64,000 bases of DNA from Myxococcota bacterium. Its GTDB lineage: Bacteria > Myxococcota_A > UBA796 > GCA-2862545. Location: positions 5,708 to 69,707 of the forward strand of contig JAWKRP010000037.1 of the NCBI GenBank assembly GCA_041389565.1. Direction: 5' to 3'. Positions within the stretch are counted from its first letter, which is position 1. Every line of letters starts with the position of its first letter. Below the pieces are notes generated by a model that saw only the letters and a list, made by a program, of their open reading frames with translations, searched no databases and was not told the origin of the DNA. The translations under genes and the position numbers were made by a program. Of the stretch, positions 16,034 through 19,085 are shown piece by piece.

Positions 16034-17233
16034 TCACTTCACGAGGGTGGTCTCGAACTCCACGTTGCCCGCGCTGTCGTAGAAGGTGCCGGTCAGCGTG
16101 TTCCCGTCGATCTCGACCCACAGGAAGCCCTCGATCGCGTCGGACTCGAACAGCGGCGTGTTCCCGCGCCCCACGAGGTCGGTGGTCTTGGCGCCTGCGC
16201 CGCTCACGATGAACTCGGTGCCGCAGTGCGAGCCGAGCCACTGGCGGTTGTGGTCGTGCCCCGAGATGTACACGTCGGCCACGCCACACACGGCGTTGTC
16301 CATGAACTCCTGCACGTACTCGCCGCGGGGGATCTCCGTGAGCGGCACCCAGTCGAAGATCCCTTCGTACTCGCCGGCGTTCCCGTGCTGCCCGTTGCTC
16401 ACGTACGGGTGGTGGCCGAACGCGATGCGCCAGGTGGCGGTGGATGCGGCCAGCTCGCCCTGCAGCCAGGTCTCCTGCGACCCGCCGAAGCCCCAGAACA
16501 CCTCGGTGGTGTCGAGCGCGAAGATCTCGAGGTCGGGACCGTACGGCACGGTGTACTGGGTCGCGGGCATGGTCCAGATCGTCGACATGGACGTGTAGTC
16601 GACCTGGTACGCCGCCTTCCAGAACTCGATGCCGGCACCCTCGCCGCCGTAGTCGTGGTTCCCCATCACCGGGTAGAACGGGAAGTCGAGGTTCGCGTAC
16701 GGGAGCTCGAACGCGTCCTGCCACAGCGGGTCGTTCACGCCGCTCACACCGGTGTTGTAGAAGTTGTCGCCGAGGTACAGCGCGAAGTCGCAGCCGCGCG
16801 CGGCGCACACCGTCTCGATGGCATCGGCCACGGCGTACTGCGCGGCGTTGCCTTCGCCCGCATCCCCGAGCGCGACGAACCGGGTGGGCGTGACGACGGG
16901 GTCGGTGTCGGTGTCGGTGTCCGCGTCGGTGTCCGAGTCCGCGTCCGTGTCGGCGTCAGCGTCGGCGTCGGCGTCGGCGTCTGCATCCGCGTCGGCGTCG
17001 GTATCCGCGTCGGCGTCGGCATCCGCGTCGGCGTCCGCATCCGCGTCGGCGTCCGTATCCGCGTCGGCATCCGCATCCGCGTCGGCGTCCGAATCGGCGT
17101 CCGTGTCCGAATCGGCGTCCGTGTCCGCATCGGTGTCGGTGTCGGTGTCGGTGTCCGTGTCGAGGTCGACGGGAACGGGGTCGGTCGTGCCGACCGTAGA
17201 GCAGGCCGCCAGCAGGAGGGTGAGCACGGACAT
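16034..17233 (-). CDS. Lipoprotein metallophosphoesterase (calcineurin-like/purple-acid-phosphatase-like) with long Asp-Thr/Ala/Ser linker
   Basis: Lipobox [11 protein letters not shown]. About 90 aa of DTDADSD repeats. MPE motifs GDAGEG, GDNFY, GNHDY, GHHP, GHDH. Confidence 0.9.
16899..17170. repeat. Asp-(Thr/Ala/Ser) coding microsatellite-like tract (GAC-RCC/GCC/TCC)n
   Basis: The + strand reads gtcggtgtcggtgtccgcgtcggtgtccgagtcc... Encodes the D[TAS]D linker of gene 16034..17233. Confidence 0.9.
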
Positions 17234-17530
17234 GGATCTCCCGGTTCGAGCCCGCCGATGTACCGGTGCACCCGTCGGGTCGCAACGCGCTCACCAAACT
17301 CTTGACCGCATGCAGCACGGCGCATCCGTGCCCGGCCCTTCCCACACGGGCGGATCTCAGCATCACCCCCGGTTGGGCCCGTCTCCATGGGGTGATCTGC
17401 GCGCCCGGATCGAGATGGGCGCCCGTCGACCCCAGGCCACGGCATGTTGCCTCGCTCACGCGAAAGCCGGGGTTTGTTGCACAGTGTTTCAGGGTCGGCC
17501 CCCCGGGTTCCCGACGGACCGCTCGGCGCC

Positions 17531-17905
17531 ATGTTCCGCCTACCCAACCCCGAGGAGCTCCTGACCCCCATGATCATCTTCAACCTCGTTGCCGTCCTCC
17601 AGGCCTGCTTCGCCGCCCTCCCCGCGTTCGCCGTGGGCTTCCTCGTCGCGCTGACGGGGTTCAATCCGGTGGCGCCGTTCCTGGTGACCCTGGGCCTGGC
17701 CTTCGCGCTCACCGACGCGGGTTGGCGGTACCTCGGCGGCCTCGATCGCCCGGACGGCGAGGGCGGCATGGTCCGTGGGCTCGGCTTCCTGAACTTCCTG
17801 CTGCCCTGGGGCGGTGGGCACGTGTTCTTCATCCCGAACTGGATCTCGGGGACGGGCGTGGCCCTGCTGTTCGGCTACGTCGGCATCCTGAGCCTGTTCT
17901 CCTGA
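17531..17905 (+). CDS. Hypothetical small membrane protein (3-4 TM)
   Basis: ATG at 17531 in frame with ORF 17444..17905. MIIFNLVAVLQACFAALPAFAVGFLVALTGF..., LVTLGLAFAL, GTGVALLFGYVGILSLF. Confidence 0.6.
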   Translation: MFRLPNPEELLTPMIIFNLVAVLQACFAALPAFAVGFLVALTGFNPVAPFLVTLGLAFALTDAGWRYLGGLDRPDGEGGMVRGLGFLNFLLPWGGGHVFFIPNWISGTGVALLFGYVGILSLFS

Positions 17906-17912
17906 CGCACGG

Positions 17913-19085
17913 TCACGGGAGGTCGATCGCGAGCATCCAGCTGGGCGGCGAGCCGCCCGTGCGCGTGACGACGAACCGCGATGGGCCCGTGAGGTCGGCC
18001 TCCACGATGCCCGGCGACTGGTTCGCGGCGGACGCTCCGAGCGAGGCTCCCCCGCCGTCCTCGACCTCCAGCATGAGGTTCGAGCTCGGGTTGTCGAGCT
18101 CGAAACGCACCGTGCCGGTGGGCCCCGAGAAGGTGGCGGTCCGCGAGGGCCCGTTGCTGCCACCGCACGCGACGAACGGGAGCGAGATCGGGCCGAGCGC
18201 GGTGTTCGATCCGACGTTGTCGGCGCCGTCGTAGGTGAGGTCGACCACCTGCGTGTCGGAGAGCAGGCCGGACCCGTCCGCGACGGTGAGCTCCACGTCC
18301 AGGGTGTCGCCCGTGCACACCGGCGTGTAGGGCACGAACACCACCGAGGTGCCGCCGTCGACGAAGGTGTCGAGGTCGCCGGGGATGGCGAGCCCCTGGG
18401 GGAGCCCGTCCACCACGAGGGTCGCGAGCCCCCCGGGGAGGTCGCCCGTCGGGTCGGTGGCGACGAAGCGGACCTCGAGCGCCCCGCTGCGGAGGTACAC
18501 CGCGAGGTCGGTCAGCACGGGGCCGTCGGGATCGGGGTCCGTGTCCGTGTCCGTATCGGTGTCCGCATCTGCGTCGGTGTCCGCGTCTGCGTCGGTGTCG
18601 GTGTCCGCATCCGCATCGGTGTCCGTGTCGGTGTCCGCATCCGTGTCGGAGTCCGCATCCGTGTCGGTGTCCGCATCCGTGTCGGAGTCCGCATCCGTGT
18701 CGGAGTCCGCATCCGCGTCGGAGTCCGTGTCCGTGTCCGTGTCCGTGTCCGCGTCGGTGTCCGCGTCCGCATCCGAGTCCGTGTCCGTGTCGGAGTCCGC
18801 GTCCGTATCGGTGTCCGCGTCCGCATCCGCATCGGTGTCCGTGTCGGAATCCGCGTCCGCATCCGCATCGGAATCCGCGTCGGTATCGGTGTCCGTGTCC
18901 GAGTCCGCGTCGGTGTCGGTGTCCGCGTCGACGTTCGACAGGTCCGGCGGCTCGAAGATGTAGGGGCAGCCCGTCAGGGTGAGGAACAGCACGCGCCCTC
19001 CGCACCCGAAGCATACCTGGCGTCGACGCCCTCCACGCGTCGTCCACGCCCGGTCCGACGCGGCGAGCCGCGGTTGCCCATGCAC
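17913..19085 (-). CDS. Secreted lipoprotein, unknown function, with ~135-aa Asp-Thr/Ala/Ser tract
   Basis: Lipobox VLFLTLTGC is followed by [11 protein letters not shown]... and a beta-rich C-terminal domain. The start is uncertain: in-frame GTG at 19085 or 18992, ATG at 19133. The ATG would overlap the divergent lipoprotein gene start at 19132. Confidence 0.65.
18525..18930. repeat. Asp-(Thr/Ala/Ser) coding tract, longest copy (~400 bp)
   Basis: gtccgtgtccgtatcggtgtccgcatctgcgtcggtgtcc... continuous to gtcggtgtccgcgtcgac. Confidence 0.9.

Follow-up and report, generated by a model that had tools for sequence, protein, structure and literature searches.

The 64-kb window analyzed here (from contig JAWKRP010000037.1; "window" denotes this whole stretch of DNA) encodes seven tracts in which Asp alternates with Thr, Ala, Ser or Val (Asp-X or D-X tracts), and five of these lie just behind the lipobox Cys of otherwise unrelated lipoproteins. 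We consider it reasonably likely, with a probability of roughly 0.6, that such tracts are intrinsically disordered, polyanionic spacers beside the membrane anchor. The position and composition of the tracts, their enrichment in lipoproteins, the interchangeability of linkers among orthologs, the repeated origin of the Asp-X state and the trace of local duplication were observed directly; from these we infer the disorder and extension of the chain, its role as a spacer and any role in sorting.

Asp-X tracts in the window

Two data sets were used, namely the 64-kb window itself and at least 120 loci from the species representatives of other genomes. The window has a GC content of 72%, its closest protein matches come from Myxococcota bins (≤ 65% identity) and it holds MYXO-CTERM-like tails. 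A six-frame scan of the window identified seven D-[T/A/S/V] tracts of 12-136 residues, all of which were also found by Tandem Repeats Finder (TRF) with periods of 6, 12, 18, 36 and 54 bp. The tracts are listed below, with lengths in amino acids (aa) and distances counted from the lipobox Cys.

T1, 16898-17167, minus strand: 90 aa of D-[T/A/S] that set in 11 residues past the Cys; ~7 residues separate the tract end from the start of the catalytic domain
T2, 18522-18929, minus strand: the longest of the seven, with 136 aa of D-[T/A/S] that set in 12 residues past the Cys and ~49 nm of contour length
T3, 25405-25422 (DTDTDT) and 25432-25467 (12 aa), plus strand: inside an open reading frame (ORF) remnant at 25330..25578
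T4, 35670-35891, plus strand: 74 aa of D-[T/A] that set in 15 residues past the Cys, with a short DDTDTD at 35637-35654
T5, 53634..53831, minus strand: a 42-aa run (53706-53831) and two 10-aa runs, 66 aa as a whole, starting 20 residues after the Cys
T6, 54544-54603, plus strand: 20 aa (DA/DT), 105 residues after the Cys, in an internal loop of a DUF2330 protein
T7, 63191-63412, plus strand: 74 aa of D-[T/A/S/V] that set in 18 residues past the Cys

In all seven cases, the D-X frame is the coding frame with high GC content at third codon positions (GC3 of 0.87-0.96), and it continues into a Pfam domain where one exists (Metallophos, CarboxypepD_reg and DUF2330). A composition count gives a net charge of -0.48 to -0.50 per residue and 0-3 hydrophobic residues per tract.

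Position beside the lipid anchor

The tracts are found in the following genes:

16034..17233, minus strand: metallophosphoesterase lipoprotein, purple-acid-phosphatase-like (Pfam Metallophos at residues 118-329, E = 2e-12; the Cys is residue 11), with T1
17913..18992, minus strand: lipoprotein with a beta-rich C-terminal part and unassigned function (lipobox LTGC; start codon uncertain), with T2
25330..25578, plus strand: orphan ORF remnant (GC3 of 0.87 in frame versus 0.66 just upstream), with T3
35583..36908, plus strand: lipoprotein (signal peptide MRLSPMFLLLALAC) in which three domains of ~110 aa stand in tandem (TRF period of 336 bp at 35910-36553), with T4
53607..53942, minus strand: mini-lipoprotein of 111 aa (signal peptide, lipobox VVLSGC and a short Cys-containing stretch, followed by the acidic tract almost up to the stop codon), with T5
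54190..55854, plus strand: DUF2330-family protein (Pfam DUF2330, E = 8e-37; lipobox-like N-terminus IALAC; MYXO-CTERM-like tail CGCRTSPLTLGAWALPLLVLARRR), with T6
63089..64000, running past the window end, plus strand: CarboxypepD_reg lipoprotein (Pfam PF13620 at residues 111-183, E = 1e-9), with T7

Five tracts set in 11, 12, 15, 18 and 20 residues behind the lipobox Cys, and a few residues separate their ends from the folded part. The lipobox Cys in these genes is part of LAAC, LTGC, ALAC, LSGC and LCAC, with a hydrophobic stretch and an in-frame start ahead of each (the start being uncertain for gene 17913). The proteins share one layout, in which a stretch of 11-20 aa connects the Cys to a tract of 66-136 aa and a Pfam domain or the first beta-strands directly follow. 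Residues +2 to +8 after the Cys have no common motif and are mostly non-acidic (one reads TVESGLK), and the tracts begin at +12 to +21.

Among the ~11 lipoproteins of the window, five have a tract at the N-terminus and a sixth has one internally, versus none of the ~35 other genes (Fisher p = 3e-4 and 5e-5); these counts of genes and lipoproteins were made with our own GC3 and lipobox heuristics and by reading, rather than with a gene caller. A first-pass annotation of the window had listed seven tracts, most of them just behind the lipobox of otherwise unrelated proteins. All seven were recovered at their places, five genes show the proposed arrangement, and the association with lipoproteins is very strong, both in the window and in other Myxococcota (see below).

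Linkers of homologous proteins

The metallophosphoesterase has 3202 homologs, the top one being 65% identical. The best 120 of these, found with the catalytic part only as query, were compared. Nearly all of these 120 have a lipobox followed by a low-complexity linker, mostly of ~40-110 aa, before the RFVALGD motif. The make-up of this linker varies among them and is Pro/Thr-rich, Gly/Thr- or Gly/Ser-rich, Glu-rich or Asp-X. When present, the D-X runs of the orthologs measure 14-46 aa, versus about 86 aa in the window gene.

In a FastTree phylogeny of 117 catalytic domains, all from database cluster representatives, linker class tracks phylogeny (43 changes versus a shuffle mean of 66 and minimum of 59) and the Asp-X state lies scattered over the tree (its 14 tips require 12 changes, versus a null of 13.4). 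In the sister clade of the window's metallophosphoesterase, Pro/Thr linkers predominate. The Asp-X linker has been adopted many times independently. Linkers this varied, together with an Asp-X state this scattered, indicate that the enzyme needs a long flexible linker, not Asp-X. On this comparative evidence, the linker sequence is probably replaceable as long as the linker is long and disordered, and the Asp-X composition would reflect the custom of a lineage rather than a requirement of the protein that carries it.

A similar picture emerges for the DUF2330 protein, which has 5289 relatives. In an alignment with 71 homologs, the loop that holds T6 is variable and acidic throughout the family. 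It is flanked by a conserved Cys and by the motif GV.V....VGPY(E/D)T (homologs P0124-P0199), and at the position of T6 many of the closest homologs have D-X runs, others mixtures of Gly, Ser and Asp. Invasion of a globular region by the T6 repeat was considered and discarded on the basis of this family-wide variability and acidity.

Repeat structure and growth of the tracts

Synonymous-codon shuffles within each tract served as the null for all comparisons at the DNA level. The tracts are imperfect repeats (74-83% matches by TRF). At a period of 6 bp, synonymous-codon identity matches chance or falls below it (T4: 0.31 versus a null of 0.49), whereas it is raised at periods of 18 and 36 bp in T1, T2 and T4 (p ≤ 0.01; T1 at 18 bp: 0.81 versus 0.57). 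The longest exact internal repeats measure 46 bp in T2 (null 26), 80 bp in T4 (null 22) and 37 bp in T7 (null 22), and T4 contains five perfect copies of GATGCGGACACCGACGCC. In T1 and T4, GAT occurs at every third Asp and so marks the 18-bp unit. Overall, GAT accounts for 29% of the Asp codons in the tracts versus 14% elsewhere in the window (p = 4e-6), counts that are not independent events because duplication copies codons.

Each tract has its own repeat unit, and exact matches shared by pairs of tracts reach 11-23 bp at most, as they do in the shuffle null, so there is no sign of exchange among the loci. The raised identity at 18 and 36 bp, the individual units and the chance-level matches between loci together argue that the tracts expanded at their own loci through tandem duplication of 18-bp multiples. 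Each would have extended by duplication of its own 18-, 36- or 54-bp unit without ever losing the frame, and the length of a tract would be set by this local duplication. As all units are multiples of three, slippage could alter the length of the protein but never switch the gene off.

These results change the DNA-level picture drawn in the first-pass annotation, which had described near-identical (GACRCC)n repeats open to slippage and inter-locus recombination. The near-identity does not exceed that of codon shuffles, and recombination between loci is unsupported, with shared matches at chance level and a unit that differs per tract. Neither does the simple hexamer formula describe the tracts, since codon identity at 6 bp is nowhere above chance and in one tract below it. 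Slippage holds as local duplication of 18-bp multiples and was rejected in its simple hexamer form.

Distribution across genomes and in a wastewater community

A scan for (GAYRCN)12 in one genome per species yielded at least 120 loci, 48 of which are labeled Myxococcota or 'Deltaproteobacteria'. Among the Myxococcota-labeled loci listed, the first tract lies within 60 aa of a lipobox-like Cys in 44 of the 61 evaluable ORFs, at a median distance of 14 aa and mostly between 9 and 27 residues. Reading the remaining Myxococcota ORFs by eye added ~5 lipobox-like cases. Lipoproteins make up 425 of the 7331 proteins (5.8%) of Myxococcus xanthus (PMC3222651), and against this share the 44 of 61 correspond to a binomial p of ~1e-40, for a lipobox called by our own heuristic and loci selected by their D-[T/A] pattern. 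Residue shares among these loci are biased because the scan selected for D-[T/A].

C-terminal anchors are also accompanied by such tracts. In three further ORFs among the loci listed, the last tract is located ahead of a MYXO-CTERM-like tail, and the Firmicutes loci listed have comparable tracts ahead of C-terminal anchors. Locus L023 (OZ245034.1, 1256001-1264000) encodes a Myxococcota protein that exceeds 1300 residues; each of its four D-X tracts (64-104 aa) comes after one copy of a repeated domain, and the final tract runs into a MYXO-CTERM-like tail. The tract loci span 41-75% GC and their codon choice tracks GC content (GAT share, rho = -0.63); it is therefore the peptide pattern that is shared, not a DNA motif.

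Other lineages showed up as well. Lipoproteins with a Cys, a gap of ~10-15 residues and a D-X tract occur in candidate-phyla bins assigned to Magasanikiibacteriota and Uhrbacteria (L052, L089). Lipoproteins with a matching arrangement of Cys, gap and tract were seen in L017, L018 and L020, of which the label 'uncultured Enterobacterales' looks doubtful (as in all of L017-L020). D-A/D-T arrays of hundreds to more than 1000 residues are present in Phyllobacterium (L037), Erwinia (L074), a Rhodospirillaceae bin (L016) and a Nitrotoga bin (L115), and these very long arrays may belong to giant adhesins resembling BapA.

The source organism was detected in four wastewater metagenome runs at ~3-5x depth. 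Per run, 850-1350 short contigs match T1 or T2 (16840-17240 and 18450-18980) at ≥ 90%, with many different flanks, and the summed depth on T1 and T2 is 100-500x that of their flanks. From the number of contigs and this depth it follows that such tracts are very numerous in that community. The short-read contigs of the four runs break at every tract, including T6 with its 60 bp, and none spans one. Assemblers are thus confronted with tracts that collect hundreds to more than 1000 short contigs per run, which makes tract lengths in short-read bins unreliable.

Additional observations on tract-bearing genes

The globular part of the 17913 protein (~200 residues, beta-rich, 17913-18440) has no detectable homolog among 5.8 billion proteins. 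A single-sequence AlphaFold2 model of this protein renders the tract as coil, with strands only beyond residue 159, at a poor predicted local distance difference test (pLDDT) value of 46. The start of the gene (18960-19140, minus strand) is unusual. The nearest in-frame start, a GTG, leaves just 8 residues ahead of the Cys, and a second in-frame GTG gives a 40-residue leader with RRRQV, possibly Tat-like. An upstream out-of-frame ATG reads MLRVRRARA and would provide a textbook signal peptide if a shift of one base joined the frames. An assembly frameshift was ruled out as the cause of this oddity because a short-read contig is identical over 18971-19225.

The ORF remnant with T3 (25330-25578) keeps a coding-like GC3 in its last 83 codons only. 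It is without start codon and signal peptide and has no NCBIfam match. A degenerate MYXO-CTERM-like tail (Gly-Cys/hydrophobic/Arg), GCGCSAAAARWAWTSAIARRR, is situated 19 residues past T3. This tail and that of the DUF2330 protein were both read from the translation, with no NCBIfam match at E ≤ 0.1. The remnant sits between two minus-strand genes, namely 24504-25215, which looks PEGA-like by eye, and the lipoprotein gene 25579-26397.

Probable disordered spacers and alternative explanations

In the reading that we favor, the tract forms most of the N-terminal linker from the lipidated Cys to the first folded domain in the five proteins, and the same type of tract would serve before MYXO-CTERM C-terminal anchors and between the domains of large exported proteins. 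Charge repulsion would extend the chain and keep it away from the anionic membrane, so that the folded domain is held off on a flexible, self-avoiding leash with a contour length of 24-49 nm. The disordered linker would probably also aid the lipoprotein-sorting machinery, as it does for outer-membrane lipoproteins of E. coli. The data on staphylococcal Ser-Asp stalks and on E. coli linkers (both discussed below) make a leash beside the anchor the most likely reading, and of the three options offered by the first-pass annotation (tether, sorting signal or Ca2+-binding spacer) the tether is the best supported.

Several points weigh against this reading. The sole structural model, that of the 17913 protein, is of low confidence. 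The lipoprotein enrichment depends on a heuristic of our own and on loci preselected by pattern, and the tree was built from database cluster representatives. A passive spacer leaves unexplained why Asp-X was chosen over other hydrophilic repeats. It leaves tracts of up to 136 residues equally unexplained, as their extended length exceeds a typical periplasm by our estimate.

The tracts could instead be a neutral by-product, if a linker need only be hydrophilic and disordered and Asp-X arises by runaway slippage of a chance hexamer or 18-mer, without selection for Asp or for length. The repeated independent origins among orthologs, the clear 18/36-bp duplication trace, the wide variation in linker composition inside one protein family and the DUF2330 homologs that fill the same loop with D-X or other low-complexity sequence all agree with this. 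However, one peptide pattern is maintained over 41-75% GC with different codons (although the search pattern biases this selection), and the tracts are concentrated beside membrane anchors, not in linkers generally. The lack of excess codon likeness at 6 bp and the doubled GAT share also misfit simple hexamer slippage. Taken together, we hold this explanation to be unlikely.

We rate it as quite unlikely that the tracts are a cation-binding module, in which polyaspartate-like chains would capture Ca2+ or Mg2+ (or attach to surfaces of mineral or polysaccharide) and act as a charged brush on the envelope, an element that stiffens on metal binding or a cation store; such a function is plausible and compatible with a spacer. 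Their charge density of -0.5 per residue would suit such a role. So would the precedent of BapA, a predicted calcium binder of Paracoccus with 891 Asp-Ala repeats, in an organism whose biofilm formation Ca2+ stimulates (PMC5588039). The 111-aa mini-lipoprotein consists of little more than anchor and tract and is hard to see as a domain spacer, and the very long D-A/D-T arrays of the proteobacterial loci L037, L074 and L016 occur in possible adhesin genes. On the other hand, orthologs with uncharged Pro/Thr or Gly linkers exist, and cation binding is therefore not needed for the core function of those proteins; moreover, neither Pfam nor NCBIfam detects a canonical Ca2+ motif (TSP3 DxDxDG loop or RTX repeat). 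An extended form of the idea, to which we assign a small chance, would treat the Asp-X tract as a device that arose repeatedly by convergence in uncultured Myxococcota and some other uncultured lineages. Anchored beside a lipid or a MYXO-CTERM tail, it would be a cation-binding envelope brush that sets the stand-off of surface enzymes, a protein counterpart of teichoic acids, with the mini-lipoprotein as a free-standing brush element.

Sorting residues of lipoproteins have been located at +2/+3 in E. coli (10.1101/2021.01.05.425367), whereas M. xanthus uses Lys at +2 and Ala at +7 (PMC3222651). An acidic tract that addresses lipoproteins to the outer leaflet, to vesicles or to the matrix, similar to the signal of Bacteroidota, would account for the tight association with lipoproteins and for the narrow spacing from the Cys (median 14, most 9-27 residues). 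None of the five lipoproteins has Lys at +2, the inner-membrane retention residue of M. xanthus (PMC3222651), which fits as well. Yet the known determinants occupy +2 to +7, ahead of all tract starts (+12 to +21) and in a segment (+2 to +8) without a common motif; metallophosphoesterase orthologs do without the tract, and tracts of this type also precede C-terminal anchors, separate domains and occupy an internal loop. We consider a dedicated sorting signal very unlikely.

To size-variable, contingency-like loci, in which slippage would yield length variants that tune the reach or antigenicity of a protein, we give hardly any credence: the five perfect 18-bp copies and 80-bp exact repeat of T4, the exact repeats of T2 (46 bp) and T7 (37 bp) and the shorter D-X runs of orthologs (14-46 aa versus about 86 aa) speak for it, but the repeats are imperfect (74-83% matches), units in multiples of three inside coding sequence make on/off switching impossible, no length variant could show in short-read contigs that break at every tract, and the closest relatives are only ~65% identical. 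The same properties, namely imperfect repeats in multiples of three within coding sequence, do not match a phase-variation locus in which a perfect short repeat shifts a frame or promoter spacing.

Significance

Judged by sequence, the tracts represent a strict Asp-X dipeptide-repeat form of the putatively disordered lipoprotein linker, and this form is widespread in uncultured Myxococcota. A literature search with tract peptide strings and 'Asp-Thr repeat' returned nothing for lipoproteins and only the Asp-Ala repeats of BapA. Asp-X lipoprotein tracts are thus apparently undescribed, as far as the searched literature shows.

Low-complexity linkers are usually masked and passed over in annotation, and here many lipoproteins of a little-studied and possibly predatory bacterial group can be told by one strict, readily recognizable linker style. 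If the tracts are spacers only, they provide a practical flag for exported, anchor-tethered proteins in Myxococcota metagenome bins. They would then also be a natural experiment on how a long disordered linker of any sequence contributes to lipoprotein sorting, so far tested only in E. coli. Should the charge matter, through cation binding or as a surface brush, the tracts would be a new element of envelope architecture.

Comparison with known systems

The lipoprotein export signal of Bacteroidota is a short motif directly after the Cys (~+2 to +6). The tracts share with it a negative charge after the lipidated Cys. They differ in that they start at +12 to +21, span tens of residues and belong to another phylum. 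The analogy with surface export, put forward in the first-pass annotation, therefore fails on position and also on motif, with unrelated residues at +2 to +8.

BapA of Paracoccus denitrificans is a type I secreted biofilm adhesin for which calcium binding by its Asp-Ala repeats has been proposed (PMC5588039). The common trait is the Asp-Ala dipeptide repeat, which in BapA belongs to a cell-surface protein. In contrast, BapA is a giant type I substrate that consists mostly of repeat, whereas the tracts described here are linkers of 20-136 residues in lipoproteins with unrelated domains.

Staphylococcal Clf/Sdr genes have a DNA repeat unit of 18 bp. By experiment, their Ser-Asp region is disordered and highly extended; charge repulsion makes it resist compaction, and it forms a stalk beside the wall anchor (PMC9881980). 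In both systems Asp alternates with a small residue, an 18-bp unit is present and the repeat lies between a functional domain and an anchor. Ser-Asp regions are also the only NCBIfam matches of the tracts; with 35-80 bits versus cut-offs of 999-2500 and covering the repeat region alone, these matches are compositional. The partner residue is Ser alone in Clf/Sdr, unlike the Thr, Ala or Ser found here. In the diderm described here the tract follows a lipobox at the N-terminus, and the Ser-Asp region precedes an LPXTG wall anchor at the C-terminus; no LPXTG motif was found on reading the seven tract ORFs. We know of no SdgA/SdgB-type glycosylation of the tracts. The resemblance to Clf/Sdr is one of convergent design, without shared ancestry.

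About one in two outer-membrane lipoproteins of E. coli has a disordered N-terminal linker of more than 22 residues, which is needed for efficient Lol-dependent targeting and of which length and disorder count, not sequence (10.1101/2021.01.05.425367). The tracts depart from these linkers in being strict alternating dipeptides with a charge of -0.5 per residue, coded by tandem DNA repeats, and in reaching up to 136 residues versus ~29-36 in the E. coli linkers that were deleted. Furthermore, the same tract type also precedes C-terminal anchors, and a role in Lol targeting is proposed here by analogy only. The linkers of RcsF, NlpD and Pal nevertheless occupy the same place, from the lipidated Cys and short sorting residues to the first folded domain, and likewise exceed 22 residues. 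In both systems the linker sequence is interchangeable as long as length and disorder are kept, with ortholog linkers here being Pro/Thr-, Gly-, Glu- or Asp-X-rich.

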